A DNA stretch of 64,000 nucleotides. Origin: an uncultured Actinomycetes bacterium (GTDB taxonomy: Bacteria > Actinomycetota > UBA4738 > HRBIN12). Below, one piece after another: positions 47,101 through 63,916 of the stretch. Numbering within the stretch: position 1 is the first letter of the stretch; each line of letters starts with the position of its first letter. The DNA is taken from contig CAVRSI010000011.1 of assembly GCA_963723855.1 (NCBI GenBank), forward strand, positions 122,181-186,180, written 5' to 3'. The position numbers and the translations under genes are program-made. A model generated the notes under the pieces. It made no database searches, was not told the DNA's origin, and saw only the letters and a list, made by a program, of their open reading frames with translations.

Positions 47101-47760
47101 TACTTCGACGGGACGAAGCAGAGCGTGAAGGACTGATCTCCGAACAGGAACGTGGCACAGTCGCCGGCGACGTCCCGCAGCTCGAAGTTCCCCCCCGCGA
47201 ACGTGTCCCCTTCAGCCGGGTGGTAGACCGTGCCGTCGACCGACGACCGAGGCGTGCTGCACGCCGTTGGAGGTGTACGTGTCGATCAGCACCACCTCAT
47301 GACCGCCGATGGTCGTCGACGATCCGTTCGTCGGCGGCAGGGTCGGCCCGGTCGGTCCGGGGCCGGTCGTCCCACCGGTGGACCCCGTCGGCCCGGGACC
47401 CGTCGTCCCACCGGTGGACCCAGACGGCCCCGACGGCCCGGGTCCGGTGCCGGTGCCGCCGGTGGACCCTCCGGGCGCCGGGAACTGCGGCGGGATCGAG
47501 AACGGATCGCGCCCGGAGAAGATCGGGCTCGGGGCGGGTCCGCCGCTCTGCGACGGGGACACGCTGCCGGTCGGTCCGGTCGACGGAACGCCGGTGACGC
47601 CGGTCGGACCACCGCTCACCGATGGCCCCACCGAGAGCGGCGGCAAGGCCGATCCGCCGCCCTTCCCCAGCTGACCGAGAAGGAGCAGCGCGAGGACCAG
47701 CACGCCGGCCACGATGCCCCCGATCTTCAGCGCCTTACGGTCGCGTTCGTTGAGAGGCAT
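47101..47760 (-). CDS. PilP-like type IV pilus protein: N-terminal TM helix, Gly/Pro/Ser/Thr-rich tandem-repeat linker and a small C-terminal domain; apparent frameshift near 47225
   Basis: Reads [28 protein letters not shown]..., then a linker ([13 protein letters not shown] x2), then ...[19 protein letters not shown]. The continuation [46 protein letters not shown] (stop about 47101) is in the adjacent frame. Confidence 0.5.
47351..47421 (-). repeat. Two copies of a 36-bp in-frame tandem repeat encoding [12 protein letters not shown] inside the PilP-like gene
   Basis: Near-identical 35/36-nt units at 47351-47385 and 47387-47421. Confidence 0.8.
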
Positions 47761-47763
47761 CCG

Positions 47764-48414
47764 TCAGGCTCCTGGCTTCGTCTCGGCTGCCGGCGAAGGG
47801 CTCGTGGGCGCGGTCGTCGCGGTCGTCGCGCCGGCCGCAGAGGTCGGGCCAGGCGATGAACCCGGGCCAGCGCTCTCGTCGCTCGTGTAGATGTCGACCG
47901 AGGCGGTGAGGGTCAACAGGCTCGAGTTGCTTTCGGAGGGCGAGGGCGAGATCGACACCGCGGTCGTCTTCGCGGCGCGCGGGAGCGTCTCGACCTTGAA
48001 CAGGAACTCCGTGAGCGCGAAGTAGGAACCGGTGGTTGAGATGGCGTTGGCCACGGTGGACAGTCCCGTGGCCGGGTCGAAGATGGGATTGGTCGGCGTG
48101 ATCGTGACGACGTCGACCCCCGACTCCACGGCTGCGTTCTGCATCAGCAGCATGAACCCTTGCTGGTCGACGGTCGGCGGGATCGCTTGCTGGACCTTCC
48201 GGATGGTCTCCCGGTTCGCCGGGGCCTCTGCCTGGGCCGCCTGAAGAGCCGCCAATTGCGCACCCAAGGTCGCCTGCTGACCCTGCGCCTCCGCGAGAGC
48301 GGCGTTCGCATCCTTCACCTGACCCATCTTCGGCAGCACCAGGAAGAACCCCACCAGCACGACCGCGGCGGCGGCGGCGATCCCGGCGAACAGCGGCGCG
48401 CGCTTACCCCCCAC
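47764..48414 (-). CDS. pilO: Type IV pilus assembly protein PilO
   Basis: Has a TM helix (LFAGIAAAAAVVLVGFFLVL), a coiled-coil region and a periplasmic domain. Probable GTG start at about 48414. Confidence 0.7.
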   Translation of the reverse strand: MGGKRAPLFAGIAAAAAVVLVGFFLVLPKMGQVKDANAALAEAQGQQATLGAQLAALQAAQAEAPANRETIRKVQQAIPPTVDQQGFMLLMQNAAVESGVDVVTITPTNPIFDPATGLSTVANAISTTGSYFALTEFLFKVETLPRAAKTTAVSISPSPSESNSSLLTLTASVDIYTSDESAGPGSSPGPTSAAGATTATTAPTSPSPAAETKPGA

Positions 48415-49034
48415 CCTGCACGTCCCCTCGGCCGCGAGGCGTGAGCGCGTCCTCCGAAAGGTCGACCCCGCTGGTGAAGGTGTACAAGCCCGGTATTCGG
48501 ACCGGTCTCGGTGGCGCTCGAGACCCAAGGGTTGACCCATCCCTTAACCGATTCGAGCCTCGTGATCCAGCTCGCTAGGCTTTCGAACCCGTCCGCCGCC
48601 CCGCCGGCGGTGAACGACCCCACGAACGTCGTGGTGGTCGACGCCGCGGCTGTCCCGGTCACCGGCGCCGTGAGCGAGGCACTGAACGAAGAGAGGTACG
48701 CGTCCGATGGGATCGTGCGGGAGAGGTCCATCAGCATCTCCGAGAACGACACTTCGCCGACATACGCCTTCGCGAGCAGCGCCTCCTGCGCGGCGGCCTG
48801 CTCCTGGAGCTGCTGGAACTCCTGCAGCTGACCGATCTGAGCCTGGAGCTGCTGGTTCGTTGCGTTCTGTGCCGCGATGTCGTCGTTGATGCCCGCCAGC
48901 TTCTGGCTCTGCAGGAACCAGAAGGCGATGAGCAGCACGACCACCGCCGCACCGGCCCCGACGATCAGTGTGGTCTGCTGTTTGGTCTTCTGCCGTGCGC
49001 GAAGCTCAGGGGGAAGGAGGTTGACCTGACTCAC
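48404..49034 (-). CDS. pilN: Type IV pilus assembly protein PilN; possible frameshift near its 3' end (about 48460)
   Basis: Starts MSQVNLLPPELRARQKTKQQT with a TM helix. The ORF tail after ...SSATETGPNTG looks out of frame. The adjacent frame gives LYTFTSGVDLSEDAL... ending at TAA 48404, 8 nt before the pilO GTG. Confidence 0.8.
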
Positions 49035-50086
49035 GCGAAATGCCTCCCGGGGATGCCCAGGCCGACGGCCACCGCGAGCACCGGCTCCGCTTCGGCAAGC
49101 GCCTCCTCAGACAGGGACAGCTGCGACTTGGCCCGGCGGAACACGTGGCCGCGCTCGATCGTCGCGGGAACCCGTTCCTGCAGGAGCTCCAGGAAGCCCT
49201 GCAGCTTCGACCCGCCGCCGATCACCAGGACCCGCCCGATCCGGGCCCCACGCGTCTGGGCCGTGTAGAACTCGAGCGAGGACCGAACCTCGTCGACGAA
49301 GTTCTGCGCCCGCTGCATGGCGGCGCGATGGACCTCTTCCAGGTCGGGACCGCCCTCGACGGCCTCGCCGCGCTTCAGACGCTCGGCGACGTCGGCCTCG
49401 ACCCCGAAGTTCCGGGCGATCGCCAACGTGATGTCCCGGCCGCCCGACGGCAGGATCCGGACGAACCGCGTCACGCCCTTCTCGTGGACCAGGATGTTCG
49501 TGACCGTGGCGCCGATATCGACGATGGCCTCTTCGCCACCCTCTTCGTCCTCCATGCCGACCTCCGGCATGCCGACCGCGCGCGCCATGGCGAACGGAAC
49601 CAGGTCGACGCCGATCGGCTCGAGCTTCGCGGCGAGCGCGACATCGACGACCGTGTTCACCATCGCGCGCTGCGCGGCGACGAGGATGAGGCGCAGCATG
49701 CGGCGCCCCTCCTGCTCGAACTCTCCGAGCGGATCGAAGTCCAGGACGGCGTCCTCGACCGGCATGGGGATGAACTCCTGCGCCTGGAACCCGAGCGACG
49801 CTCGGAGCTCCTTCTCGGGGAGCCACGGGAGCGCGATCTCGCGCACCACCACCCGTTGGTTCCCGACACCCATGTAGACCTGCCGGCTCTTGAAGCCTCC
49901 GCGCTGCCAGAGCTCGCGCAACGCCTCGCTGACGACCTCGGGCTGGCGGATCTCGCCCGCCTCGACCGCCCCCTCCGGCAACGGCACCTGCGCCGCCCGA
50001 ACGACCACGGGGGTGTCGCCGCCCTGGAGCTCGGCGGCGCGCACGGCCGTCGCGCCGATATCCAGTCCGACCCGTACCTTCGCCAT
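49031..50086 (-). CDS. pilM: Type IV pilus assembly ATPase-like protein PilM
   Basis: 351 aa starting MAKVRVGLDIGATAVRAAEL, an actin-like fold typical of PilM. Confidence 0.9.
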   Translation of the reverse strand: MAKVRVGLDIGATAVRAAELQGGDTPVVVRAAQVPLPEGAVEAGEIRQPEVVSEALRELWQRGGFKSRQVYMGVGNQRVVVREIALPWLPEKELRASLGFQAQEFIPMPVEDAVLDFDPLGEFEQEGRRMLRLILVAAQRAMVNTVVDVALAAKLEPIGVDLVPFAMARAVGMPEVGMEDEEGGEEAIVDIGATVTNILVHEKGVTRFVRILPSGGRDITLAIARNFGVEADVAERLKRGEAVEGGPDLEEVHRAAMQRAQNFVDEVRSSLEFYTAQTRGARIGRVLVIGGGSKLQGFLELLQERVPATIERGHVFRRAKSQLSLSEEALAEAEPVLAVAVGLGIPGRHFA

Positions 50087-50293
50087 CTACGGACCCTCCG
50101 TCCGAACGGAGCGCTCCTCCAGGAAGCGCTCCAGGTCTGTCTCGCGCAGCCGGTAGTTCTTGCCGACGCGCACGGCCGGAAGCTCGCCGCTCTTGATCAG
50201 CCGGTAGACCGTCATGTTCGAGACCCGCATCGCGTTCGCGACCTCGGACACGGTCAGGAGACCGCCCGGAACGAACGGCTGCGACTCGCTCAC
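50087..50293 (-). CDS. Small MerR/excisionase-family HTH DNA-binding protein (BldC-like, 68 aa)
   Basis: GTG start; reads LTVSEVANAMRVSNMTVYRLIKSGELPAVRVGKNYRLRETDLERFLEE. It sits immediately upstream of pilM and is preceded by the SD GGAGGAGGG. Confidence 0.7.
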   Translation of the reverse strand: MSESQPFVPGGLLTVSEVANAMRVSNMTVYRLIKSGELPAVRVGKNYRLRETDLERFLEERSVRTEGP

Positions 50294-50383: not shown

Positions 50384-50743
50384 CCCCTTACCAAACACCA
50401 GGGAGCAACCGCAGTCAAACATCTCGCACAGGGAAGTTTCCGCAGGTCCGAACGGGTGTTCGGACAAGACCAGCTGCGCTCGGTCCCGAGAGTGGGTCGG
50501 CCTGCTGCCGGATTCATGTAAGAAGGGTGCCGAACCTGTTCAGTTAAGATTGACACCGCCGACGTACGGTGGCAGGAGTGGCGCAGGTCGATGCCACAAC
50601 ATCGCCCAGTTCGACGCCTTCCTCACGCCGAAATGGATAGGTCGGAACCGGACTTAGGACGAAGGGACGGCCGGAAGAGCACCTTTTTGCCGCTGTTGCG
50701 CCCTGGTCGGGTGACATAGATTGACCCAGTGAGGAAGCTTCCG

Positions 50744-51138
50744 ATGACGAAACGACGGTCGATCGCACGGGGGCTCGGGCAAGCAGTCGCCCGTTCGCAA
50801 CGCCCGCCCTTCCCCGATTGCCCGACCTCGAGACCGAGGGACCGGTGCATCAGCTGCTCATGTCCGGGGAGCGCGATGACGGCGGCTGGGGCCTCATCGG
50901 GGCGTTCTGGCTCTCGGTCGACGGCCGGCGCGGCGGGTTCATCGTGTCTCCGGGATTCCTTGGCATGGTAGCGAGATGGTCCGCAGCCTTCGAAGCGCGC
51001 TCGACCGCGGCTGGACCGAGGAGCGGATACTTCTCCTGCTGGGAGGGTCAGGTCGGCACCGTTGGCACCTACATGATCGATCCCGAGACGCCCGCGGAGA
51101 ACCTGGTCGAAGTCGCCCGCCGTGTAGGGGCGCTCTAG
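50744..51138 (+). CDS. Hypothetical small protein (possibly frameshifted between 50729 and 50818 frames)
   Basis: An SD (GTGAGGAAG) precedes the ATG at 50744. The downstream frame 50818..51138 has high GC3 and a plausible sequence (...GWGLIGAFWLSVDGRRGGFIVSPGFLGMVARW...). No recognisable domain. Confidence 0.3.
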
Positions 51139-51469
51139 CGGCGATCGGTGGTCATCCGCTTCCAGGCGCTCCGCTTCCCGCCAGCGTTGCCCTATCGGGC
51201 TCGCGTTCCATGTCCATCGCGATGCGTACTCAGCGATCGGTATCGAGAACACGATCCTTTCCGGTGGGGCAGAACGGGTGTCAGGATGTCGTGGCTGCCT
51301 AGTCCCGTACGCTCGGAGCGGAGCCGCAGAGAGGTAGGCGACCCCTGAGCCCTCGCCACCAGGCGGCGGCGCACGCCTCTCGATGGGTTGCGGCAAGAGG
51401 TCCGGCTGAGGACCCGTGCCGCCGCTCGGGTCACGTTGCCGTCGGCGAGACGTCCTGCGACAACGCGCC

Positions 51470-52288
51470 TTAACCGTCCGCGTTTGCCTCACTCTCACCG
51501 TGGAGGGACGGGTTGCTGATCAGTTCGGCGATGGCTAGCCCAAGCAGAACCAGTCGTCGTCGGGGAGGATCCCGCCTGCTGCGACGGCGCCGGCGCTTGC
51601 TGGCCCAAGATCTCAAGACAGATGCATCGGCTTCGCCAAGGCTTGGCGCATTCACCAAGGTGCCTTGAACAACCACCCCGATCGTGCAGGTGCCGCCGAC
51701 GCTGTAATAGAAATCCCCATTGAGTGCGGTGTTGATCGCCCCTGTCACGTTGAAATCGCCGAACACGCTCCTGTAACAAGTAGGTGCTCCGGCTGGTGGG
51801 GTGATATTGGCCGTCGTCGTAGCAGTCGTCGATGTGAGCAGGTATCTGCCCGCGTTCGCGTCCAGGGTGATGCCGGTAGCTGTCACCGAGATGCCTGTTC
51901 CGGGGCCGATGGACGCGAAGGTCGCGCTTGCGGCCGAGCAGGTCACGACGTCGGGCGAGATCACCCCGGTCAGCGAGCAGAGGGTCATCGTGGCCGCATT
52001 CGCGCCGTCGTAGACCTTGTCGGCCGCAGTCACGGTTGCGGTCACCGGCCGATACAGCGTCCCGCCTTTGGCCCCATAGCCTATGCAGAGCGCCTCACTT
52101 GGAAACGTTGTTCCGTCCGCGCGGACGAGCGTTTGCCAGCCGCCCTTCTGACAGAGTTTCGCATTCGTGGAGTTGCTGCCAGCGAAAGCGATTCCGACGT
52201 TGACGACGAGCATCACAACCACAAGGCCGAACGTCGCCACGATCGAGACCATGCGTCGAGCCCTTCGGCGCTCACGTCTCGCCCTCAT
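51470..52288 (-). CDS. Secreted/membrane-anchored protein with an MBG/YDG-type adhesin-repeat signature, in a lower-GC island
   Basis: Has an Arg-rich N-terminus plus hydrophobic segment (MVSIVATFGLVVVMLVVNVGIAFA) and a Cys-containing region. It carries a KVYDG...LTGVISPDVVTCSAASATFAS...GRYLLTSTTATTTANIT block typical of MBG/YDG repeats. Local GC is about 55-60%. The C-terminal ~60 aa may be out of frame. Confidence 0.5.
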   Translation of the reverse strand: MRARRERRRARRMVSIVATFGLVVVMLVVNVGIAFAGSNSTNAKLCQKGGWQTLVRADGTTFPSEALCIGYGAKGGTLYRPVTATVTAADKVYDGANAATMTLCSLTGVISPDVVTCSAASATFASIGPGTGISVTATGITLDANAGRYLLTSTTATTTANITPPAGAPTCYRSVFGDFNVTGAINTALNGDFYYSVGGTCTIGVVVQGTLVNAPSLGEADASVLRSWASKRRRRRSRRDPPRRRLVLLGLAIAELISNPSLHGESEANADG

Positions 52289-52656
52289 GATTCACCCTTC
52301 TTCATGGTGCCCGAACCGTCATGACGTCTCGCCCGATCCAGGGACTTGACAACCCCCCTTCCGTCCTACTATCGACCGGAGACAGCGCCTCGCCCCATCG
52401 GTCTTCGGTCGGCGAATCCGGGCCACAAGGCGTAGCACTCGCCAATCAGTCAGCGTGAACACCTAAGCAACTGAGGGCTTGCATGACTCGGAAGACATCA
52501 CTCGGGATGAAGCAAGCCGGGTCCATCGGAGGATTGGGACCTTATCGGCTCCTTGTGTCGCCGCCTTCACCGGTCTCCTCTGTCGTCGCCTTCACGTGGT
52601 AAACGGCCTCGACTCCACGGAAGGAACTTGGCCGATCGGCCCGAGCGGGGCAAGCC

Positions 52657-53436
52657 TCACGATTCGCGCTCACGTGACCGAACGGAGGTACCAGTCTGCG
52701 ATCGTCGCACCCCAAGCGTCGCTGTGATGGCGCCCGCCGCAAGGAACGGCCCGAATGGGATCGCGCTCTTTCGCCCGCGGCCGGCGAGCAGGGCGACGAG
52801 GCCTCCCAGACCCCCGAGCAAGACTGCGACGCCGGCCGCCACAGCGACGCAGCGCAAGCCGAGCGCTCCCATCATCAAGCCGATCAGCGCCGTCAGTTTC
52901 ACGTCGCCCATGCCGAGGCCTCGAGGCGCTATCAACGCGATGAGCATGAACAGACCCCCGTAGGCGAGCACACCCACGATCGCGCGCAGCGGGGCCAGCG
53001 GTTGGCCGATCGCCCACCCGAGGACGATCGCGGCGGCGAACGCTGGGAACGCGGGATAGGTGATCCGGTTAGGGATGATGCGATGCTCCAGGTCGATGGC
53101 ACCCACGGCGAGCATCGTCGCGCAGAAGGCGACAGAACCACGATCAGATGAGATCTGTGGATAAACGATGGCGACCCCCGCGAACAAGGCCGCGGTCCCC
53201 CCCTCCAGCACGGGATATCGGACCGGGATCGGTGCACGGCACGAGCGACACCGACCGCCGAGAAGGAGCCACGAAAGGACCGGGATGTTGTCGCGACTCT
53301 TGATCTCGGCACCGCAGTGCGGGCAGCGCGACCGCGGTGAGACGATCGATTCCTTCTTCGGGATCCGGTCGACGACGACGGTCAGGAAGCTCCCGACAGC
53401 GAGTCCGAACGGTACCGCGACGAGGGCACGGATCAC
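52657..53436 (-). CDS. pilD: Type IV prepilin peptidase (A24 family) PilD
   Basis: Has N-terminal zinc cysteines (CPHCGAEI...CRSCRAPI), catalytic Asp motifs including GMGDVKL, and multiple TM segments. Confidence 0.9.
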   Translation of the reverse strand: MIRALVAVPFGLAVGSFLTVVVDRIPKKESIVSPRSRCPHCGAEIKSRDNIPVLSWLLLGGRCRSCRAPIPVRYPVLEGGTAALFAGVAIVYPQISSDRGSVAFCATMLAVGAIDLEHRIIPNRITYPAFPAFAAAIVLGWAIGQPLAPLRAIVGVLAYGGLFMLIALIAPRGLGMGDVKLTALIGLMMGALGLRCVAVAAGVAVLLGGLGGLVALLAGRGRKSAIPFGPFLAAGAITATLGVRRSQTGTSVRSRERES

Positions 53437-53475: not shown

Positions 53476-54957
53476 GGACCATGGAACCTACGAGGCCTCG
53501 CGCACGTACGCGATGTCCTCGCGGAACGAAGTGATGGTGCCGTAGCCCGGAACGAGCACCGGGCGGAACGTCATCGTGTAGTTGTTCCCGATGACGACAG
53601 TGCCGCCCATGACCTGGCCGTAGTAGTTGTTCTGGTTGTTCATGTTCGCCGCGCAGGGTGTGTAGAAGAAGACCTGGGTGTTGGAGTCGAAGTTCGTGAG
53701 GTTCCCGACGCTGACGTCCTTGCTTGACGTGCCTGTCGGGCAGGGAGATGGAGCGGGCCATGTGCTGATGAAGAAGATGCTCTCGGTCGCGGAGGCTCCG
53801 TTCCAATTGGATTTCTGCTGGAGGTTGATGCCCCAGTCCGTGATGATCGCTAGGTTCCCATTGACACCTATCGTCTTGTTGTTGCCGTTCGAGAACGTGC
53901 AGGGGGTCGCGCCGGGTCAATCCGCACGACGAAGCTCCCAGACCAGGAACCCTCGACGAACGATCGGGCCTGACTGCAGGCGTCTCCCACCGAGAACGTA
54001 TTGCCTCCGCATGTCGTGGACGCCGACGCGCCAAACGTGCATACCGTGTATCCCGCATTGACCCAGTTCGTTTGGTCCGTCGCCGTGAACGTGATCTGAG
54101 GGAAGGGTTGGGTCGGAGGCCTGGGCGACACGGTGTTCGTGTATGACGTTCCGGCCACGGAGACCCCGCTGATCGTCGTGCCCGCAGTAGCGCTGTTGCC
54201 GATCGATTCGCTGCCGCCGATCGAGGAGCTTGAAGAGGTGACGCTGCCCGAGACGCTCGTGGGGTTGGCCATGGTCACACTGTCGTTGGCCCACAGGTTC
54301 CCCTGGATGTTCGAGTTGTTTGAGATCGACGCCGCCCCGTATGGGATGTAGACGTTGCCGCGAATGCGTGGCGTGTTCGTGATGACGAGGTCGCCGTTCA
54401 ATATGTACACGTCGCCGTCGTTCCCGTTATTGCCGTAGATGTCGAAGTTGTTCGGGAAGTTCGCGCCATTGTTGGTAAGGACGGCGGCTCCGAAGCCCCC
54501 GTAGACAGGCATTAGTCGGATGTAGGTCTGCATCGTCCTCGGGGTTTGACCGCCAACCGTTCCCGTAGTGGTGATGAATACCGACGACGGGTAAACCGCG
54601 TCGGTAAAGGGACAGTTCATCACGTGCGCAGGGGTAAGCAAACCACTGGCGTCGTAAAAGGTCGGCGTCGCAGTGAAGCTAGCGCTCGCCGGCGCGCTCG
54701 CGATCGACTGGGTCACGGGGTTACAGCTCAGCGTCGTAACCGGGGTGGACTGCAGGAGCGCGTAGTAGTAGTTCGCGCCGGATTCGGCGGCGTCTACTGA
54801 GGTCAGCCTTTGCCGGTCGTAGCCAGTGGACTGCGCGTCGTGGATCGACTGCGCGACGATCACGGTGGACAGGATCAGCAGCACCATGCTCACGAGGAGG
54901 GCGATCACCATCGCCATTCCTTCCTCTCCGCTCGATCGGATGCGCATCGTTAGCTCC
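53476..54957 (-). CDS. Large PilX/PilY-like pilus-associated protein (about 490 aa); apparent frameshift at a C5 run near 53905
   Basis: The SD TAAGGAG precedes an ATG at about 54957. It starts MRIRSSGEEGMAMVIALLVSMVLLILSTVIVAQS and has Asn/Gly-rich beta-solenoid-like repeats (NGANFPNNFDIYGNNGNDGDVYILNGDLVITN...). The C-terminal ~140 aa (GVNGNLAIITDWGINLQQK...FREDIAYVREAS) is in the adjacent frame. Confidence 0.5.
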
Positions 54958-54984
54958 TTACGGTTCACGTTGGCACGTTCGTGG

Positions 54985-55580
54985 GCAGGGTGGCGCAGAC
55001 GGCGAGCGGATAGCCGAACGAGGTGTTTCGGCCCGTCACCGAGGTCTGCAGTCTTTGGGTCGCATTGGCGGACCCCGTCGGGGTCCGAGTTGACGAGGAA
55101 CTGCACCGTCATCGTCCGCCCGGTAGGATCAAGCGTGAATGCGCTCTGTGATTGGGCGCGGTTCAAGATGCCGTCGGCAACGACCTGCCAGGTCAAGGCT
55201 CCCGGCGTGATGTTCGGCTTCCAATACCCGTACATCAGCTGGTTCTGACTGTTGATCGTCCACAGAGCGCAGCGGCTGATGTCATCCTGTGCTGAGTAGG
55301 CCTGGGTGTAGATGAGGAACGTATACCCTGCGGCGTTGGGCGGGTACAGGAGATTGCCGGAGCGCACCTGGCGGTCGATCGTCTGCATGGCGAGGCGGAC
55401 CTGGTTGATCGTTCTGGACCGCACGTCCTCGTTCACGCTTGCCTTCTGGATCGATGTCAAGGTCGATAGCAGGATCACCATGGCGATCGACAGGATGCTC
55501 ATGGCAACCACTAGCTCGACGAGCGTCATGCCTCCGTGTTCGTGGAGGCGCTGCCGTAGCTTGGCGATCCGATTCGCCAT
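54985..55580 (-). CDS. Minor pilin with prepilin-type N-terminal cleavage/methylation domain
   Basis: Starts MANRIAKLRQRLHEHGG|MTLVELVVAMSILSIAMVILLS (G-1, E+5). Its 3' end is unresolved because the track ORF runs into the next gene, so a terminal frameshift is likely. Confidence 0.65.
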
Positions 55581-55585
55581 CCCTA

Positions 55586-57369
55586 TCACCCGGCCGCCGG
55601 CGCGGGAGCGTAGACACTTCGCGTGAGCATCGTCCCCATGTTGATAGCGATGTTCAGGTTTATCGCCGTCGCCCCGTCGACGATCACCACGTAGTGCACC
55701 GTCGCCTTGAAGGGCGTCACGCTTGAGTCCTCGGCCGTGCACTGGGTGAGCGTCGCGCTCGGCGTGCACGTCCGGGTCGAGCCGGACGTGGCTGCTTGGA
55801 TCCCGAGCTCACCGAGATGGTCACCGTGACAACGTGCCCGCCGACCGTGGCGGTCTGGGTCGCGGGAGGCGCAACGATGTTGTTGAGCAGCGCATCTGTC
55901 ACCGAGCGAGAGGTGTAGCTTGCACCGTTCCAGTAGGAGATCGTGCCGGCCGACGGGGCGGCCGCCGGCGCGGCCGTGGTCGTCGACCCCGCCTGGGAGG
56001 TCGCGCTGTCCCGGTATCCGGTCATCGAGAGCAGGTAGCCAGTCCAACCGGCCGGCGCGCCGACCGCCGCCGGGAAGGCGCCGATGTTCACCTGGCCGAT
56101 GTTCCGGGTGGCCGACCGCGACGCTGCCGTCCTTGCCGGGGTCCACCTGGCGATTGACGAAGGACGTGTTTGGGTTGCTCGCGGCCGCGTCGACGCTCGC
56201 AAGCGCCGCGGTGCCGAGGCCCCCAGCAAGTCCATTGAGAGTCATGGAGGCCGTCAGAGGCGCCTCCCTGCTGGATCCGCCCGCCGACGCAAGGGAGGTT
56301 ATCGGTCTCAGCCGTATCGGTCGGGGGCGGGCAGACGTTGGTTCCCCCGGCAGCGACCGCGGCGTCGGCCAAGCCGGCGTCATTCGGTGGCGCTCCAGGT
56401 CGATGGACGTCGAGCCGTTGGTGGACGAAACCGCACCGCCTAGGCCCGAAACCGGCAGACTCGTACCGTAGGTGAGGGCGGGTGCTCCCGGGTCTGAGTC
56501 CGCGGCGCTCGCCGTCGTGAGCGTACCGGCGTCCGTCCGTGTGCCAGCCCCATCTGTCACCGAGACCTGGGACTCCGAGAACGACGCCCGACCTACCGTC
56601 ACTTGCTCGTTCTGAAGGTTCGACTCCGTTCCAGTCAGACCGAGGTAGCCGCTCGTGAAGTTGTTCAGGCCCTGGATCGACCCGCTGATATCGATATGCG
56701 CTGCCGGCACCTGCGCGAGGCCGTAAAAGGACGGTTGGCACGGAGCCGCGAATGGGTGGGTCGACGAGCTCAGGCACCCACTCGGCGACGAGAACAGGCT
56801 CTGGATCTGAACGAGGTTGTTGGCCTTGTTCGGGTAGGCAGCGCTTGTCCAGCTAATCATGACGGTGACCCGGTACGGGGTCATCGCGGGGCAGGTGGCC
56901 GTCACCGAAGGGCAGTCGTTAGTGACGTAGGTCTGCCAGTTGAAAGCGATGTTATTCGTCGTCGCGGTCGCGGCGATCGTGCCGGTGTGTGGATTGATCC
57001 ACGGCGTCGAAGGCACGCCACCGGAGTTCACGATCCGCTCGCCTGAGCAGGACTGGAACCGGTAGACGATCGGTGTCCCCCCACAGTTCGCGATGTTCGG
57101 GTCTGTTAGATCACTGCTGGACAGCCCCGTCTGGATCTTCGAGTACGCCTGCCCTCGGATGGTCTCCATGATCTGGTCCGCGATGCCGTCGGCGGTGACA
57201 CGCTCGCGGCCGTAGGCGATCGAGTGGAACCCGAGGGTCGCCGTGTACGCCATCGCGACCATGGCGGCGAAGATGATCGTGATCGCGATCATCGTCTCGA
57301 TGATGGTGAATCCGCGCTGGTCGTCTTTGGCGAGCGCAGACAGGCGCCTTGCAGTATCGCCCGGGTCAT
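55586..57369 (-). CDS. Large minor pilin / pilus tip protein with prepilin leader; several apparent frameshifts (leader at about 57349, body at about 56400 and about 55760)
   Basis: The ATG at 57369 (SD GGGAAGGA) gives MTRAILQ in one frame. The joined reading would be RRLSALAKDDQRG|FTIIETMIAITIIFAAMVAMAY. The body is Thr/Ser-rich and its pieces lie in at least two frames before the common stop at about 55586. Confidence 0.55.
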
Positions 57370-57723
57370 ACGGTCCTTCCCTATGTCAACAGCTGTCGAG
57401 TAATGGGTCGGCAACTCGGCTGGCCGGCTTGAGGTCATCTGGGGGATATCCCGCGGATCGGGTAGGTCGAACGACTCAGGTTCCTTGGGTACCGGACCGT
57501 GGCAGGATTCCTTGAGGGAGGACGACACCTCGTCTGATACACATGCCCAAGAGAACGGAGCACACAGAAGGGGCGGCCCGGAGGCCGCCCCTTGCGTGTG
57601 TGCCGTTCCTGATCGTCTGTTACGGAATGCGGGTGCCGCGGCCGCAGCAGCAGCGGTGCCTGTGCAGTTGGCCGGCGCGCGGTGGAACCATAGGTGGTGC
57701 CTCCGGCAGCCGAGTCTTTGATC

Positions 57724-58122
57724 TAGTAGCAGGTACCCGACGCGGACAGGCGGTCCGCCGACCAAGAATTGTGTTTGGGGCGCCGTAATGTCGGCGGCAC
57801 CGGCCGGAGCGGTGCATCCATCGTCTGTGGCAGCCGGGGCGCCGCCACGTAGCACAGCGACGGCTCGACCGTCTTCAGGCCGGTCGCGGCCGGTCGTCTG
57901 CGACCTGCGTATGGTGCTGGCGTCCGTGTAGATCGTCTTCGCAGCCACGAGGGCGTTGCGAAGGTCGGACTGCGCCGCGCGGTTCTGGGCCCGGGTACGG
58001 GCGCCCAGGAACGTCGGCAGTGCGATGGCGATCAGGATGCCGATGATCAGAACGACCACCATCAGCTCGATGAGGGTGAAGCCGTCCTCATCCTGCTTGC
58101 GCTCGAAATAGCGCTTGAGCAT
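57724..58122 (-). CDS. pilA: Type IVa major pilin paralog 1; apparent frameshift near 57905
   Basis: Starts MLKRYFERKQDEDG|FTLIELMVVVLIIGILIAIALPTFLGARTRAQNRAAQSDLRNALVAAKTIYTDAST, preceded by SD GGAAGGGAG. The Cys-containing C-terminal segment (...EPSLCYVAAP...GTCY) is in another frame. Confidence 0.8.
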
Positions 58123-58172: not shown

Positions 58173-58808
58173 CTACTGGGTCAGGGTTTCGGCGTCTGCG
58201 GCATCCTGCTTGAGGGCTCGGCGCTCGTCCGTCCATGAATACCTGGGAACGGGTAGGACGCGGGCTACCAGCCGGCGGCGGCGGGGCTGTCGCGGCGGTC
58301 GCGGTTCGCCGCTGCCCACGTCGCCGTGCAGTTCGGCGGCCGTCGTCTTCCCGTACTTGGTCCCGGTCGTGCCGTCGAGGATCACGAAGCACGTGCTGCG
58401 ACGCCGACAGCCGAGCCGCGGAGAACTGCGTCGCCGTCGAGTGGACGCTGATCGACCCGATCCCGCTCCCGCTGGCGCACGCCGGGAGCGACGGGGTTCG
58501 TCGCCGCCGATGCCTGCCGTTGGCACGTAACACATGTTCGGGATGATCGTGACGAGCCCGTGCCGGACTCGTCGGCGGATGTGAACGTGGCGTTGTCCGT
58601 GTACAGGATCCGCGCCGCCAGGACCGCGTTCCGCAGGTCCGATCTGGGCGGCGCGGTCCTGGAACCTCGCCCGCACGCCGAGGAACGTCGGCAGGCCCAT
58701 CACGATCAGGATGGCGAGGATCATCACGACGACCATCAACTCGATGAGCGTGAAGCCGTCCTCGTCCTCGTCGCAAGCCGTCTGCCAGGTTCGGAGCACC
58801 GGTGCCAC
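58173..58808 (-). CDS. pilA: Type IVa major pilin paralog 2; multiple apparent frameshifts
   Basis: GTG start with SD GAGAGGAG; reads MAPVLRTWQTACDEDEDG|FTLIELMVVVMILAILIVMGLPTFLGVRARFQDRAAQ. The continuations SDLRNAVLAARILYTDNATF... and ...IIPNMCYVPTAG... are in other frames. The 3' end is uncertain. Confidence 0.7.
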   Translation of the reverse strand: MAPVLRTWQTACDEDEDGFTLIELMVVVMILAILIVMGLPTFLGVRARFQDRAAQIGPAERGPGGADPVHGQRHVHIRRRVRHGLVTIIPNMCYVPTAGIGGDEPRRSRRAPAGAGSGRSASTRRRRSSPRLGCRRRSTCFVILDGTTGTKYGKTTAAELHGDVGSGEPRPPRQPRRRRLVARVLPVPRYSWTDERRALKQDAADAETLTQ

Positions 58809-58982
58809 CTCCTCTCGCTCGTCAGCGTCGACGGCCGGGGACCCGTCCGTCGCACCGTCTTTCACGAGATATCGGCACGGATGCCGTCGAGGGTTGACCC
58901 CTCCGGCCCGCCGACGCGGACCGGAGGGACAAGAGCCAACGTTCGACGTACGTAGAACCGGCGGATCACTACGTACGTGGCC

Positions 58983-60199
58983 TTACTGGATCAGCTTGAT
59001 GATGTTGAACATCGGCATGTAGAGCGCGATGACCGCGGCTCCCACGGCTCCTCCGATGATCGCGATCAGGAGCGGCTCGATCAGCGACGTCAGGGCGTCG
59101 ACCGACGCCTCGACCTCCTGGTCGTAGAACTTCGCGACCTTCTCGAGCATGGTGTCGACCTGGCCGGTCTCCTCACCCACCGCGAGCATCTGCACGACCA
59201 TCGGCGGGAACACGGCGTGCCTCGCGAGCGGCTTGGCGATCGACTCACCTTCGCGGACGCTCGCCTGCACGTCGACGACCGCCTTCGACATCACCTTGTT
59301 GTTCACGGTGTCCGCGACGATGTCCAGCGCCTGCAGGATCGGGAACGCCCGAGCGCAGCAGCATCGCCGGCCGTGCTGGAGAAGCGGGACAGCGCGGTCT
59401 TGTGGAAGAGCGTGCCGAAGATCGGGATCTTCAGCTTGAGCGCGTCGAGCGTCGCCCGTCCGGCTTCCGTCTTCTTGTACCGCCTGAAGAGGAACGACGA
59501 ACACGAACGTGAGCATGATGAGGAGTCACCAGTACTTCTTCACCGCGTCCGAGGCCATGAGCAGGACCCGGGTCGGCAGCGGCAGCGTGCCGCCGAGCTG
59601 CGTGTAGATGGTCTTGAACTGCGGCACGACGAACAGCAGCATCGCCGACATGATCAGGACGACCAGCGCGACGACCGCGACCGGGTACGTCATGGCCGAC
59701 TTGATCTTCTGCCGCAGGTGCACCTCGCGCTCGAGCACGTCGGCCAGCCGGAGCAGCACGTCGTCCAACATCCCGCCCGTCTCGCCCGACTTGACCATGG
59801 CGATGTAGAGGTCGTTGAACGCCTTGGGGAACTTCGCCATGGCCACGGACAGGCTCGAGCCCTGCTCGACGTCGTTGCGGACGAGCGTCAGGGTCTTCGC
59901 GAGCTCCTTGTTGCTGACCTGGTCGGACAGGATCGACAGCGCGCGCAGGATCGGCAGGCCGGAGTTGACCATGGTGGCGAACTGCCGGGAGAAGATCGCG
60001 ACTTCCTTGAGCTTGATCTTCGCCGGCCTGATGTTGATCTCGAGGTTGAGGCCCTTCTTCTCCTTGCCGACCTCGAGCGGGGTGTACCCCATCTCGCGGA
60101 GGCGCTCGAGGACCAGGCGCTCGTTGTCGGCGACGAGGGTCCCCGTGACGAGGTTCCCGGACTTGTCCCGGACCTTGTACTGCGTAGGACTCAGACATA
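58983..60199 (-). CDS. pilC: Type IV pilus inner-membrane platform protein PilC (GspF family); at least three apparent frameshifts (about 60185, 59530, 59400)
   Basis: The ATG overlaps the pilT stop. The first GspF repeat (...FSRQFATMVNSGLPILRAL...) is in the 59526..60482 frame. The second repeat (...FPILQALDIVADTVNN...LIEPLLIAIIGGAVGAAVIALYMPMFNIIKLIQ) is in the 58983..59516 frame. The central TM segment is in a third frame. Confidence 0.85.
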
Positions 60200-61357
60200 G
60201 TCGCCTCCCGACATCATCGAGCCCATCGCCATGGCTCCGCCGCCGTCCATCGGAGGCGGAGCGGAGGCGCCGCCGACCAGCCGCTGGAGCTCCTCGGGGT
60301 CGTGGCAGCGCTCGAACGCCACCTGCTGGTTGATGCGGCCGGCCTTCACGTGCGCGGCGATCGACATGTCCATCGTCTGCATCCCGTACCGGCCGCCGGC
60401 CTGCATCGCGGAGTAGATCTGGTGGACCTTGCCCTCGCGGATCAGGTTGCGGATGGCCGGGGTCGTGACCAGCACCTCGCACGCCGCGACGCGTCCCTGG
60501 CCGTCGGTCGTCTGGAGCAGCTGCTGCGTGACGACACCCTGAAGCGTGGTCGCCAGCTGCACCCGCACCTGCTGCTGCTGGTGCGGTGGGAACACGTCGA
60601 TGATGCGGTCGATCGTCTGCGGCGCGTCCTGCGTGTGCAGGGTCGCGAAGACCAGGTGGCCGGTCTCGGCCGCCGTGATCGCGGTCGAGATCGTCTCGAG
60701 GTCTCGCATCTCACCGACCAGGATGACGTCGGGGTCCTGACGCAGGACGTGCTTCAGGGCCTGGCCGAACCCGTGCGTGTCGGCGCCGACCTCGCGCTGG
60801 TTCACGATGCACTTCTTGTGCTTGTGCAGGAACTCGATCGGGTCCTCGACGGTCATGATGTGGCCGGCCCGCTCCTCGTTGACCACGTCCACCATGCCGG
60901 CGAGCGTGGTCGACTTGCCCGAACCCGTCGGGCCCGTCACCACGACGAACCCACGCGGGAACCGGGCGAGGTCGGCGACCACGCCCGGGAGGCCGAGGTC
61001 TTCGAGCTTCTTGATCTCGAACGGGATGAGCCGGAACGCCGCGCCGAGCGCGTCGCGCTGCTGGTAGACGTTCACACGGAAGCGCGCCTGACCCGGCAGG
61101 GAGTAGGACATGTCCAGCTCCAGCTCCTGCTCGAACCGCTCGCGGAGCTTCTGCGGCAGGATCGCGTAGATCATGCCCTGAAGCGCCCGGGGCGTCAGCG
61201 GAGGATACTTCTCCAGCCGCTCCAGCTCGCCGTTCACACGCACGACGGGCGGGGTCCCCACCGTGAGGTGGAGGTCCGAACCGCCAACCTCCAAGAGCGC
61301 CGTGAGCAGCTCCGGGATCGGGATATTCACGTCGTCTTGATCTGCTTGCATCACCAT
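60191..61357 (-). CDS. pilT: Twitching motility ATPase PilT
   Basis: 388 aa with Walker A GPTGSGKST, the PilT AIRNLIRE motif, and an intact frame. Confidence 0.95.
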   Translation of the reverse strand: MVMQADQDDVNIPIPELLTALLEVGGSDLHLTVGTPPVVRVNGELERLEKYPPLTPRALQGMIYAILPQKLRERFEQELELDMSYSLPGQARFRVNVYQQRDALGAAFRLIPFEIKKLEDLGLPGVVADLARFPRGFVVVTGPTGSGKSTTLAGMVDVVNEERAGHIMTVEDPIEFLHKHKKCIVNQREVGADTHGFGQALKHVLRQDPDVILVGEMRDLETISTAITAAETGHLVFATLHTQDAPQTIDRIIDVFPPHQQQQVRVQLATTLQGVVTQQLLQTTDGQGRVAACEVLVTTPAIRNLIREGKVHQIYSAMQAGGRYGMQTMDMSIAAHVKAGRINQQVAFERCHDPEELQRLVGGASAPPPMDGGGAMAMGSMMSGGDYV

Positions 61358-61358
61358 C

Positions 61359-63041
61359 TCACTTCACCACCCTTGCGATCTCTCCGATGGATGTCCGGCC
61401 CATGCGGGCCTTCTCCAGACCGTCGTCACGAAGCGTCATCATTCCCTGCTCGATCCCGGTCTTCCGGATCTCATCGGCAGATGCCCGGTCGACCGTGAGC
61501 CGTTGGATCTCCTCCGTCATCGGCATGACCTCGTACAGACCTGCACGTCCGCGGTAGCCCGTGTTCGAGCATGCCGAGCAGCCGGCCGGATGGAACAGCG
61601 TGTCGATCTCCGGGATCAGCCAGTCCGGGTAGCCGGCGGCCACCAGTTCCGCGTGCTCGGGCTTGTACGCCTCCTTGCATCGCTCGCAGAGCATCCGGAA
61701 GAGGCGCTGGGCGACGACGCAGTCGATCGCGGACGCCACCAGGAACGTCTCGACCTCCATCTCCACCAGCCGCGAGATGGCCGATGCGGCGTCGTTCGTG
61801 TGCAGCGAGGAAAGGACGAGGTGACCGGTGAGGGCGGCCTCGATCGCGATCGTGGCCGTCTCCTTGTCGCGGATCTCACCGATCAGCACGATGTCCGGGT
61901 CGGCACGAAGGATCGACCGCAGGGCCGACGCGAAGGTGAGCCCGGCCTTCGGGTTCACCTGCATCTGGTTCACGCCGTCCAGGCGGTACTCGACCGGGTC
62001 CTCGACCGTGATGATGTTGCGGTCTTCCTGGTTCAAGATGTTGAGCGTCGCGTACATGGTGGTCGACTTCCCCGAACCGGTCGGCCCGGTCACCAGGATC
62101 GCGCCGTACGGCTTGCTGAACGACGCGGAGAACCGCTTGTAGGCGTCGTCGGAGAAGCCCAGATCCTCGAGGCGAAGGAGCGCCTGGGACTTGTCCAGGA
62201 CGCGGATGACGATCTTCTCGCCGTAGACCGTGGGGAGCGTCGCGACACGCAGATCGAGCGTGCGCCCGCCGACCCGCATGCTGATGCGGCCGTCCTGCGG
62301 CACCCGCTTCTCCGCGATGTTCAGGTCGGCCATGACCTTCAGCCGGCTGATCAGGCCGCCCTGGATGTTCTTGGGCGAGTGCATGACGTCGTGGAGCACG
62401 CCGTCCACGCGGAACCGGACGCGGACGTCCCGCTCGGTCGGCTCGATGTGGACGTCGGAGGCCCGGTCGCCCACCGACTGGGTCATGATCGCCTGCACGA
62501 GCTTGACGATCGGTGCTTCCTCGAGCGCCGCCTCCAGCTGTTCATCGTCGCCCTCGAGCTGTTCGGAAGCCTGCGACGCAAGGGCTTCGACCTGCCCGTC
62601 CATGCCGGCGAACTTCTGGATCGCCTGCTCGACGTCGGCGGCCGTCGCCACCACCGGCTGGACGTCGCGGTTCGTGATCGTGCGGATGTCGTCCAGCGCG
62701 TAGACGTTCGCGGGGTCCGACATCGCGACCAGGAGCTTGCCGTCGCGTTCCCCGATCGGGATCGCGCGGTACCGGCGCGCGAGCGCATCCGGCAGCAACA
62801 TCGTGGACGAGGGATCGATGTGATAGTCGGCCAGGTCGACGAACTCCAACCCGACCTGCTCGGCGAGGGCGCGGACCAGGTCCGCCTCCTTGATCAACCC
62901 GAGGTCGATCAGGACGCGGCCGAGCGACTTGGGGGTCTTGCGATGCTCCTCGAGCGCCTGCTCCAGTTGCGCAGCAGTGATGAGACCCTGTTCGATCAGG
63001 ATCTGTCCGAGTTGCTTCGCCTTTCGCTTGACCGTAGTCAT
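61359..63041 (-). CDS. pilB: Type IV pilus assembly ATPase PilB (GspE family)
   Basis: 560 aa with N-terminal GSPII domains, Walker A GPTGSGKST, and a tetracysteine zinc motif (CERC...CSAC). Confidence 0.95.
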   Translation of the reverse strand: MTTVKRKAKQLGQILIEQGLITAAQLEQALEEHRKTPKSLGRVLIDLGLIKEADLVRALAEQVGLEFVDLADYHIDPSSTMLLPDALARRYRAIPIGERDGKLLVAMSDPANVYALDDIRTITNRDVQPVVATAADVEQAIQKFAGMDGQVEALASQASEQLEGDDEQLEAALEEAPIVKLVQAIMTQSVGDRASDVHIEPTERDVRVRFRVDGVLHDVMHSPKNIQGGLISRLKVMADLNIAEKRVPQDGRISMRVGGRTLDLRVATLPTVYGEKIVIRVLDKSQALLRLEDLGFSDDAYKRFSASFSKPYGAILVTGPTGSGKSTTMYATLNILNQEDRNIITVEDPVEYRLDGVNQMQVNPKAGLTFASALRSILRADPDIVLIGEIRDKETATIAIEAALTGHLVLSSLHTNDAASAISRLVEMEVETFLVASAIDCVVAQRLFRMLCERCKEAYKPEHAELVAAGYPDWLIPEIDTLFHPAGCSACSNTGYRGRAGLYEVMPMTEEIQRLTVDRASADEIRKTGIEQGMMTLRDDGLEKARMGRTSIGEIARVVK

Positions 63042-63193
63042 GTCGGGCTACCGGCGTCCGTTCGGTCTAGGTCGTCAGGAACTAACTTCGTCATCACCGC
63101 TCTCGACCTGAAGCAGGCCCGAGAACTCTTTGGCCAACATGACCGGATCGACCTCGGCGTCGGCGTCGAGCTCCATCGGAGGTGGCGTGTCCG

Positions 63194-63916
63194 TTACCGT
63201 TGCGTTCGTTCGTATCGGAGGCGTCGCCGCCGGCCGCTCCTTCCGCGTCCGGGCCGGACGTCGACGTGCCCTCCGCTCCGGCGGCTGCCCTTCTTCCCGG
63301 AGCCGCCGTTCGCGGCGCGCTCGACGGCATCCGCCGGGTCGGAACCGGACCCCTCCGCACCGGCCGCATCCCCCGAGCGGCCGACACCGCTTGCAACCGC
63401 GGCCATCGCCTCCTCGGTGGACGCGGCGGGCTTGCCGTCCGCGGCGGGCTGGGCGGTCCGAGCCCAATGTCGTGCCTGGGCGCTGTCGGGGGCCGGCGGG
63501 GTCGCGGACGAGTCGCCGTTCGTCGACTGCTTGTAGGACGACGTCGGCGATTTGCCCCGGGGCCCACCCGACGCCTCGGGGACGCGGAGCGTGTCGCGGC
63601 GGTTCCGGGACTCCTCGGCGGAGGTCAGGATGCCCTCGAGCTGATCGATCACCAGGCCGGGGCGGACGCCGGCGTTGGCCACGGCGAATGCACCGTACGC
63701 GGGCCGTCTGACGTAGACCCAGACCTGGTCGCCGAATTCGACGAAGCTGCGCTCGGGGTCCCCGAGCGAAGCGAACCTGACCCAGGCCGGCTTCACGGCC
63801 GTCTCGTCGTCCGGGTAGGACCCGAGGATCAGCCCGTCCCTGGAAAGGATGAGACAGCCGCGCACGTCGGCGACGCCGCCCGCGATGCGATACGCGAGCG
63901 CCGAGTAGTCATCCAT
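63194..63916 (-). CDS. Roadblock/LC7 (MglB-like) domain protein with a low-complexity C-terminal tail
   Basis: The N-terminal ~100 aa (DYSALAYRIAGGVADVRGCLILSRDGLILGSYPDDE...) match the roadblock/LC7 fold. The tail is Gly/Ser/Arg-rich and may be partly out of frame. The gene lies directly upstream of pilB at the window edge. Confidence 0.65.
   Translation of the reverse strand: MDDYSALAYRIAGGVADVRGCLILSRDGLILGSYPDDETAVKPAWVRFASLGDPERSFVEFGDQVWVYVRRPAYGAFAVANAGVRPGLVIDQLEGILTSAEESRNRRDTLRVPEASGGPRGKSPTSSYKQSTNGDSSATPPAPDSAQARHWARTAQPAADGKPAASTEEAMAAVASGVGRSGDAAGAEGSGSDPADAVERAANGGSGKKGSRRSGGHVDVRPGRGRSGRRRRLRYERTQR

Follow-up and report, generated by a model that had tools for sequence, protein, structure and literature searches.

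A type IVa pilus locus in the shikimate gene block of uncultured Actinomycetota

Within a 64,000-nucleotide (nt) stretch of DNA (hereafter the window; contig CAVRSI010000011.1 of assembly GCA_963723855.1, positions 122,181–186,180, from an uncultured Actinomycetes bacterium) lies a gene cluster for a type IVa pilus (T4aP). On the minus strand, from position 63916 down to 47100, it encodes in turn a Roadblock-fold protein (Rbl), PilB, PilT, PilC, two pilins (A and B), three further proteins of the minor-pilin region (X, Y and Z), PilD, a YDG-domain protein, a helix–turn–helix (HTH) protein of the HTH_17 family, PilM, PilN, PilO and a fourth protein that we call P4. The stop codon of P4 occupies 47100–47102, the ATG of Rbl lies at 63916, and aroC starts at 46965. 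Domain scans and coordinates bear out an initial annotation of this DNA, made from the letters alone, which had described a complete T4aP locus with these genes in this order, on this strand and between these end points.

The pilus machine and its pilins

Gene identities were assigned from Pfam and NCBIfam scans and from the nearest solved homologues. The extension ATPase PilB (61359–63041; 560 amino acids (aa), intact) matches T2SSE (5e-139) and MshEN (3.5e-24) in Pfam; its best NCBIfam model is TIGR02538 (type_IV_pilB), at 651 bits narrowly below the equivalog cut-off of 675.65, and its nearest solved structures are Thermus PilF (6f8l) and Geobacter PilB. The retraction ATPase PilT (60191–61357; 388 aa, intact) scores 487.5 bits against TIGR01420 (cut-off 319.1), carries the AIRNLIREGK motif and lies closest to Geobacter PilT (5zfq, 7e-129), with Pseudomonas PilT also near. 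Both ATPases are present, as the initial annotation had claimed. The gene for the platform protein PilC (58983–60198) is frame-broken, with T2SSF domains in both fragments; the intact homologue in the related locus L084 (403 aa) has two T2SSF domains, and PilC falls below the PilC equivalog cut-offs of NCBIfam. The prepilin peptidase PilD (52657–53436; 259 aa, intact) matches A24_N_bact (6.9e-33) and Peptidase_A24 (1.2e-13) and has the four-cysteine N-terminal domain and both aspartate motifs.

Among the alignment proteins, PilM (49031–50086; 351 aa, intact) matches PilM_2 (1.8e-48) and TIGR01175 (193 bits, cut-off 133), with Thermus PilM (2ych) as its nearest solved structure and Myxococcus PilM also near. 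PilN (48407–49034; about 210 aa, frame-broken) is recognized by its N-terminal VNLLPPE motif and canonical position, its Pfam match being sub-threshold (17–21 bits against 22.8). PilO (47764–48415, intact, the start at about 48415 being uncertain) matches PF04350 at 32.9 bits (cut-off 22) and aligns in one frame to its homologue in the relative L004. The features by which a T4aP is recognized are thus found together: a PilB-type ATPase, PilT, a single platform protein with two T2SSF domains, PilM–PilN–PilO, and PilD with pilins that carry class III signal peptides. None of the features of Tad pili (TadA, TadB/TadC, tiny Flp pilins) occurs in the locus, which is a T4aP system of known kind.

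The pilins and minor pilins carry N_methyl motifs of the type G↓FTLIELM (arrow, cleavage site), and homologues of the pilins in related loci score above the cut-offs of PF07963 and TIGR02532. Pilin A (58266–58808, 3′ end approximate; about 177 aa in relatives, frame-broken here) has a GTG start and the leader ...DEDEDG↓FTLIELM, and its homologue in L083 has the N_methyl motif. Pilin B (57620–58122, 3′ end approximate; one frameshift) begins MLKRYFERKQDEDG↓FTLIELMVVV and is probably the major pilin; it is 157–167 aa long in relatives, where it has three or four paralogues compared with one copy in the window, and the L082 homologue matches both families. The minor-pilin-like protein X (55586–57369; about 594 aa, frame-broken) has the leader ...QRG↓FTIIETMIA and shares 51% identity over 592 aa with L019:4032–6035, itself a weak N_methyl match. 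Minor pilin Y (54960–55580, 3′ end approximate; about 205 aa, frame-broken) matches N_methyl at 2.4e-5 with the leader MANRIAKLRQRLHEHGG↓MTLVELVVA. Z (53488–54947; about 486 aa, frame-broken) is called a large pilus-associated protein from its position and an N-terminal hydrophobic segment; the gene just upstream of pilD in relatives encodes 592–595 aa with weak matches to PilX_N and DUF4900 (3.6e-4 and 1.8e-5 for L004:5569–7353). The three large minor pilins of the initial annotation are therefore present as genes, but its 495- and 633-aa open reading frames (ORFs) are frameshift fusions of them, the true genes encoding about 594, 205 and 486 aa.

Pilin copy number and the minor-pilin cassette vary among loci, and the cassette of the window could be aligned only to that of L019. 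Its G+C content is lower (0.63–0.66) than the roughly 0.70 found otherwise. In many close relatives a gene for a PMT-family protein O-mannosyltransferase, absent from the window, lies on the opposite strand between pilins and minor pilins (at 1631–3040 in L001; also in L002, L003, L006, L007, L019, L082 and L083). This suggests that the pilins of these relatives may be O-glycosylated.

Scans of Z and the other large locus proteins, of further regions of the window and of the approximately 21-kb loci of relatives gave no secretin domain, in agreement with the earlier claim that the locus and its vicinity lack a secretin. Nor does the locus encode PilW, TsaP or PilF pilotins, and P4 is followed by aroC, not pilQ.

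P4, Rbl and candidate control elements

P4 (47100–47760; about 213 aa, frame-broken here) is encoded directly after pilO, here and in almost all of the loci long enough to show it. It matches no Pfam family (scanned as the L004 homologue) and no NCBIfam family (scanned as P0231), does not attain the Pfam PilP gathering score, and its named homologues are all annotated ‘hypothetical protein’. The family is large (988 cluster representatives at 50% identity, E ≤ 1e-3) and has a constant layout: an N-terminal MPLxxRDRRxL motif and transmembrane (TM) helix, a Pro/Thr/Ser-rich stretch, an invariant RDPFS, a second low-complexity stretch, and a C-terminal beta domain of 70 residues with two conserved cysteines. 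The tether exceeds 100 residues, and the anchor is the TM helix, with no lipobox cysteine.

An AlphaFold2 model of P4 from a 44-sequence alignment places the TM helix at residues 5–31 (predicted local distance difference test score (pLDDT) 82–94) and a seven-stranded beta domain at pLDDT 94–97. When this domain was compared with 48,164 chains, the HR domains of PilP, GspC, OutC and GspB were the best compact matches, at ranks 1–4, 6 and 9; GspC came first, the others being PilP (4av2_M, 2ivw_A, 2y4x_A), OutC/PulC (6hcg_e) and GspB (4wfw_A). Among 50 distant members of the family, PilP was the commonest Pfam match (4 of 50, best E 0.0037) and one member matched T2SSB (5.6e-5), all below the cut-offs. 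A profile search of PDB sequences, tried as a route to PilP by sequence, returned only weak matches to the TM and low-complexity segments and no PilP. With its HR-type predicted fold and its position after pilO, P4 is supported as PilP/GspC HR-like at the level of fold and architecture. To that extent the PilP-like gene of the initial annotation stands; a PilP by Pfam threshold or lipobox it is not.

At the other end of the locus, Rbl (63075–63916; 279 aa in relatives, frame-broken here) opens with 113 residues that hardly vary across the family; about 130 residues of variable and disordered sequence follow, and the C terminus bears a conserved acidic motif, MELDADAEVDPV(L/M)LAKEFSGLLQVESGDDE. 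Its Pfam match to Roadblock/LC7, at 16 bits, is below the Robl_LC7 threshold; its predicted structure has the Roadblock/LC7 fold and is closest to Streptomyces CvnB. Rbl is, on this modelled structure, a Roadblock-fold protein. In the relatives that extend that far its neighbours are aroE and pilB, and no MglA- or CvnD-like GTPase adjoins it. Because no GTPase is encoded alongside, the label ‘MglB-like’ in the initial annotation was an overstatement, although the Roadblock fold itself was correctly called. The last 30 or so residues (63075–63170), MELDADAEVDPVLLAKEFSGLLQVESGDDE, are conserved despite the freely varying middle, and the tail resembles a short linear motif to which some partner docks.

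Three elements of the locus may feed into its control. Upstream of pilin A, between a stem–loop after pilC and the pilin start, lies a candidate sigma-28/WhiG-type promoter (58869–58897, minus strand), TCAA-N17-GCCGATAT, which has two mismatches to the sequence TAAA-N16-GCCGATAA and is kept at the same place in the close relatives L002–L009 and L082–L084. The spacing in relatives is N16; the N17 of the window is due to one extra base near 58887. The background for the motif is 0.005 matches per 310 nt. A second candidate (52542–52569, minus strand), TGAA-N16-GCCGATAA, has one mismatch and lies between pilD and the YDG gene; about 0.3 matches with two mismatches or fewer are expected by chance across the window. 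The consensus (−35 TAAA, −10 GCCGATAA) was taken from Rubrobacter (PMC8325347). Scans for sigma-70 promoters and terminators were uninformative, and a terminator-like hairpin lies at 47039–47060 between P4 and aroC.

More distant relatives lack the sigma-28-like motif before the pilin at the same stringency. They have instead, about 60–20 nt 5′ of the first pilin start, a CTTCAG element and a GC-rich hairpin, GAACGCGCRCC-N4-GGGTGCGC, ahead of a GGAAAGGAGG ribosome-binding site (L011, L013, L022, L024, L025, L036, L037, L041, L043, L059, L063, L065 and others). The hairpin may be a regulatory structure of the 5′ untranslated region.

The HTH_17 protein (50087–50293; 68 aa, intact; 1.6e-17), of MerR/excisionase type without an effector domain, abuts pilM and is kept wherever a locus reaches far enough upstream. 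Its best solved relatives are 6amk and 6ama (E 1–2e-3), entries named ‘putative DNA-binding protein’ that we take to be Streptomyces BldC. Finally, residues 10–62 of PilB form an MshEN-type cyclic di-GMP (c-di-GMP)-binding motif domain (NF053729, 68 bits, cut-off 38). The PilB N terminus holds two tandem repeats of the form ...LGxxLIxxGLIxxxxLxxALxxQ/H, which open with QLG or SLG and not with RLG, a triplet presumably important for c-di-GMP binding by MshEN-type repeats.

Conservation, insertions and broken frames

When one genome was scanned for each GTDB species, 273 had a PilM relative together with two specific PilM peptide patterns, and the best 80 of these 273 loci were compared. All 80 are from metagenome-assembled genomes (MAGs), with PilM identities of 62–100%, and in all except four the label reads Actinomycetota, Actinomycetes or Actinobacteria, in keeping with the actinobacterial origin given in the initial annotation. 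The exceptions are one Solirubrobacterales, two entries named only ‘bacterium’ and one ‘Candidatus Velamenicoccus archaeovorus’. The last (L040, JBHGAT010000004.1) has the same pilD–HTH–pilMNO–P4–aroC block at 72% PilM identity and is probably a misbinned or mislabelled contig. PilM also has thousands of close metagenome homologues, of which the named ones are labelled as Actinomycetota MAGs. At the DNA level the loci closest to the window are L083 (95% identity), L084 (94%), and L002 and L082 (92% each); the PilM of L002 is 100% identical to that of the window, as is PilB in L082–L084.

Across the 80 loci and L082–L084, the order pilB–pilT–pilC–pilin(s)–variable minor pilins–pilD–HTH–pilM–pilN–pilO–P4–aroC–aroB is invariant wherever contigs reach, and aroE–Rbl lies upstream of pilB in all five loci that extend that far. 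The edge of the window is 84 nt upstream of Rbl. In L082–L084, which have the identical PilB, the upstream side runs aspS ... alaS, ruvX, mltG (YceG), aroE, Rbl, pilB, which places the pil locus, as judged from these contigs, inside an alaS–ruvX–mltG–aroE // aroC–aroK–aroB–aroQ block. On the other flank the window confirms that the locus directly adjoins aroC–aroK–aroB–aroQ–pepQ–efp. We take the alaS-to-aroQ block to be the usual actinomycete arrangement, and presumably Streptomyces has the same run of genes, alaS to metK by way of the aro and pyr genes. Cultured actinomycetes may carry a lone pilD-type gene between aroE and aroC; a literature search found no lone prepilin peptidase at this site in Streptomyces or Corynebacterium. 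The position of the pil locus between aroE and aroC is, by gene order, a clade-wide and apparently vertically inherited feature. An arrangement shared by the relatives is typical of the clade, and the claim of the initial annotation that it is distinctive is not supported: the order recurs in 80 species-level relatives, and T4aP had already been reported in Actinomycetota.

One part of the locus is specific to the window. At the pilD–HTH junction it carries a 2.2-kb insertion (50463–52680) that is absent from all 80+ relatives, in every one of which at most 1 kb separates pilD from the HTH gene; L019 alone has an ORF (141 aa) in the gap. The insertion contains the YDG gene (51470–52288, minus strand; YDG, 3.8e-12), whose product has an N-terminal hydrophobic segment and a C-terminal part that is probably frameshifted, and which has no homologue in any relative locus compared. 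It also contains a plus-strand gene (50725–51138), probably frameshifted and without a Pfam family, whose product is 47% identical to that of the L019 ORF, there co-oriented with the pil genes. The gene list of the initial annotation had included the first of these and missed the second. A 14-nt inverted repeat (51444–51457 and 52320–52333) surrounds the YDG gene. A mobile element was considered for the insertion as a whole and rejected, its flanks showing no convincing terminal repeats. This site has the look of a hotspot for accessory genes.

In the sequence as it stands, the genes that read through unbroken are pilB, pilT, pilD, pilM, pilO and that of the HTH protein; the remaining genes contain one to four single-base insertions each. 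We located these by alignment to relatives (for pilC, six relatives and L082–L084), and each aligned break is one extra base in the window that is absent from every relative, L004 and L084 included. The extra bases lie at 47245 in P4, at 48486 in pilN (where the last 25 or so residues are shifted), at about 59340–59345, 59366, 59496 and 60183 in pilC, at about 58395, 58508 and 58642 in pilin A, and at about 63195 and 63285 in Rbl. Protein-level comparison adds breaks in pilin B (near 57900), X (near 57330, and probably a compensating pair near 56150–55780), Y (near 55070) and Z (near 53910).

The same happens outside the locus. Extra bases occur in aroC (46128), in aroB (44345 and 45221) and between genes (47088), and protein-level comparison places further breaks in efp and pepQ. 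A codon-position model shows stop-free frame switches in pheT (about 12570), carB (about 36267), pyrC/carA (about 39216) and elsewhere. Frame changes over 4490–47100 include, with these and the aroB and aroC sites, those at about 8277, 29748–29992, 32008, 42322 and 43576; the housekeeping genes that change frame are pheT, carB, pyrC/carA, efp, pepQ, aroB, aroC and probably coaBC. Wherever relatives could be aligned, the change was again one extra base in the window. Indel errors in the window amount to about 0.3–1.3 per kb, unevenly spread, a rate that makes an ORF-based reading of this DNA unreliable.

Interpretation and surroundings of the locus

We consider it likely that the locus encodes a working, retractable T4aP of an uncultured and presumably monoderm lineage of Actinomycetota, and that it is vertically inherited. 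Its role could be twitching, adhesion or DNA uptake.

Several points weigh against this reading. The placement of the nearest genomes in Actinomycetota is that of their record titles, and a secretin may be encoded beyond the regions scanned, namely the locus, parts of the window and the approximately 21-kb relative loci. About 10 of the 16 locus genes cannot be translated end to end as given. An in-frame TGA interrupts pilC at 59526–59528, where relatives have TAC, a difference that takes more than one base change. Breaks are also several-fold denser in 42–64 kb of the window than in 13–30 kb, from either an uneven error rate or a more variable region.

The TGA in pilC would suit a locus that is truly decaying in this genome, with the frameshifts, the pilC stop and the 2.2-kb insertion all real and the pilus no longer made. 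So would the number of frame-disrupting single-base insertions, about 20 within 16.8 kb, a lineage-specific insertion with an inverted gene between pilD and the HTH gene, and a single pilin B copy where relatives have three or four. We nevertheless think decay unlikely. Insertions of the same type interrupt aroC, aroB, efp, pepQ, pheT and carB, which are indispensable to a free-living cell, and L082 and L083, sister assemblies with long contigs that stem from one and the same sequencing project, have their own, different breaks in pilT and pilC, while the genes are intact in L004 and L084, which are seemingly assembled from short reads. Moreover, pilB, pilT and pilM (4 kb) are intact, with ratios of non-synonymous to synonymous substitution (dN/dS) of 0.13 or less: pilB differs from relatives at 29–57 synonymous and 0–3 non-synonymous positions (dN/dS 0–0.016), pilT has a dN/dS of about 0.08 against close relatives and 0.13 against the more distant L009, and pilM ranges over 0.006–0.10; the HTH gene lies at 0.03–0.2. 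Because insertions of the same type occur in essential genes, are absent from relatives and coexist with low dN/dS, we read the breaks as consensus indel error, and assembly error rather than pseudogenization is the parsimonious account. The initial annotation had named true pseudogenization as the outcome that would undo its own proposal; this outcome is not borne out, since the insertions are window-wide and fall in essential genes too.

A different challenge concerns the kind of machine. In a standard diderm-type T4aP, P4 would dock on a PilQ-type secretin or outer-layer pore encoded elsewhere, and P4 does keep, across the clade, the fold of the PilP/GspC HR domain that binds the N0 domain of the secretin in known systems (PMC6916266, PMC10191384). 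This we regard as very unlikely, given that no secretin domain appeared in the regions scanned, that the relatives are labelled Actinomycetota or Actinomycetes and their gene order from alaS to metK is presumably that of Streptomyces, that a TM helix and a tether of over 100 residues stand in P4 where a lipobox would be expected, and that PilP also stabilizes PilN/PilO independently of the secretin (PMC6916266). Highly improbable, in our estimate, is a short pseudopilus for DNA uptake or secretion, similar to Com or type II secretion systems (T2SS), in place of a surface pilus. Its attraction is that PilB and PilC score highly against the GspE and GspF models in NCBIfam, just below the PilB and PilC equivalog cut-offs, that PilO weakly matches GspM and that the top structural match of P4 is GspC. 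The PilT above its family cut-off, the separate PilM (TIGR01175) with PilN and PilO, and pilins of 157–177 aa are nonetheless signatures of T4aP; Com systems have neither PilT nor PilMNO, and T2SS are confined to diderms (PMC10191384). As a T4aP can itself mediate DNA uptake, the pseudopilus proposal is about function, not kind.

For a working T4aP, the steps can be outlined by homology to characterized systems. PilD would cleave the G↓F(T/M)L(I/V)E leader of both pilins and the minor pilins; PilC would act as the platform in the cytoplasmic membrane, with PilB driving extension and PilT retraction; and PilM would bind the INLLP-type N terminus of PilN, which with PilO would form the alignment complex. 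X, Y and Z, which vary between strains, may prime or tip the fibre. P4 would be a divergent PilP, anchored by a TM helix instead of a lipid, whose RDPFS segment probably grips PilN/PilO in the way of the N-terminal region of Pseudomonas PilP, and whose HR-type beta domain could reach the cell wall on its long Pro/Thr/Ser tether. The sigma-28/WhiG-type promoter would drive the pilin gene, and regulatory inputs may come from the c-di-GMP motif of the PilB MshEN domain, the BldC-like HTH protein encoded before pilM and the acidic-tailed Roadblock protein encoded before pilB.

In known systems PilP stabilizes PilN/PilO, and in Neisseria it belongs to the eight-protein minimal assembly set (PMC6916266, PMC10191384); by analogy, given that stabilizing function, a secretin-independent role is the most likely one for P4. 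Tentatively, and with the odds rather against it, P4 might be non-vestigial in a further sense: with the protein anchored in the membrane next to PilN/PilO by way of RDPFS, its HR domain, on a tether of about 100 residues in the peptidoglycan, could assemble or attract a collar to lead the fibre across the wall, a monoderm substitute for the PilP–secretin link, with Rbl as a GTPase-independent switch of PilB and PilT.

The published T4aP that are nearest in taxonomy are those of Actinoplanes missouriensis and Rubrobacter, in the same phylum. T4aP in monoderms including Actinobacteria were reported in a genomic survey by Denise et al. (PMC6668835), pili have been described on Actinoplanes zoospores (PMC12871210) and a WhiG-controlled pil cluster in Rubrobacter radiotolerans and R. 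xylanophilus (PMC8325347), and WhiG control of type IV pili is published for both genera (PMC8325347, PMC12871210). Predicted T4aP clusters are also known from Cellulomonadaceae, Jonesiaceae, Sanguibacteraceae and Cryptosporangiaceae (PMC8325347, PMC12871210). The initial annotation named Tad pili as those commonly described in high-GC Gram-positives; this fits an older survey whose three Actinomycetales genomes yielded operons of Tad type and no other (PMC3244431), but T4aP have been reported since (PMC6668835, PMC8325347, PMC12871210). The present locus shares with Actinoplanes and Rubrobacter a clustered pil locus, a sigma-28/WhiG-type promoter and a link to c-di-GMP, here the PilB MshEN motif. 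The papers cited here for these systems mention neither a site between aroE and aroC nor any PilP-like, Roadblock or BldC-like HTH gene.

The Firmicutes T4aP of Streptococcus sanguinis, Clostridium perfringens and C. difficile are like this locus in their clustered PilB, PilT, PilC, PilD and PilMNO, their multiple major-type pilins and few minor pilins and, within the regions scanned here, their lack of a secretin (PMC6916266, PMC10191384). In S. sanguinis, however, PilP is absent, which reviews of monoderm T4aP call logical without a secretin (PMC6916266, PMC10191384), whereas this clade keeps the PilP/GspC-HR-like P4 after pilO; it also has short pilin leaders (13–25 residues) and the extra Roadblock and HTH genes. 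With the diderm T4aP of Myxococcus, Pseudomonas, Neisseria and Thermus it shares the pilM–pilN–pilO–pilP order, and the nearest PilB, PilT and PilM structures are those of Thermus, Geobacter and Myxococcus. In Pseudomonas, PilP is built of an anchor, a disordered stretch that contains an (R/K)xPF motif, and the HR beta domain. P4 has the same three parts, with a TM helix in place of the lipobox and longer low-complexity tethers; unlike in diderm systems, no pilQ follows it and no pilotins are encoded at the locus. The Tad/Flp (type IVc) pili of Bifidobacterium breve and Micrococcus luteus are likewise type IV filament machines of monoderm high-GC bacteria (PMC6916266), but use TadA, the platform paralogues TadB/TadC and Flp pilins of 44–68 aa and lack PilT and PilMNO, Tad features that this locus does not have. 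Rbl, compared with CvnB of the Streptomyces conservons and with Myxococcus MglB and MglC, is without an adjacent GTPase (CvnD or MglA), DUF742 protein or sensor kinase, and adds the disordered region of about 130 residues and the acidic C-terminal motif. The version of this clade differs from the characterized monoderm T4aP in the PilP/GspC-HR-like P4, the fixed Roadblock and BldC-like HTH members and the fixed site in the shikimate block.

Gram-positive T4aP have been dissected almost only in Firmicutes, where PilP is absent; here, in a large clade of soil Actinomycetota, a protein with the PilP fold is retained, with no secretin within the data scanned. P4 bears on what PilP does beyond secretin docking and on how a pilus passes through a thick wall, and the locus would extend the reported WhiG and c-di-GMP control of actinobacterial pili to uncultured lineages. 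It also holds a caution for genome scans: apparent pseudogenes here are best read as assembly indels, and a ‘distinctive’ synteny is the norm of the clade.

Beyond the 3′ end of the locus follow, in turn, aroC (45803–46965, minus strand; Chorismate_synt, 1.2e-87; one insertion), aroK, aroB, aroQ, an M24 peptidase gene (pepQ), efp, pyrR, pyrB, pyrC, carA and carB. Farther along the window lie metK, priA, rib genes, pheST, argF, tyrS and an rRNA operon (16S at 2647–4175). An ordinary FMN riboswitch (108 bits; 21453–21581, minus strand) precedes the rib genes, with ribBA at about 18369–20147.

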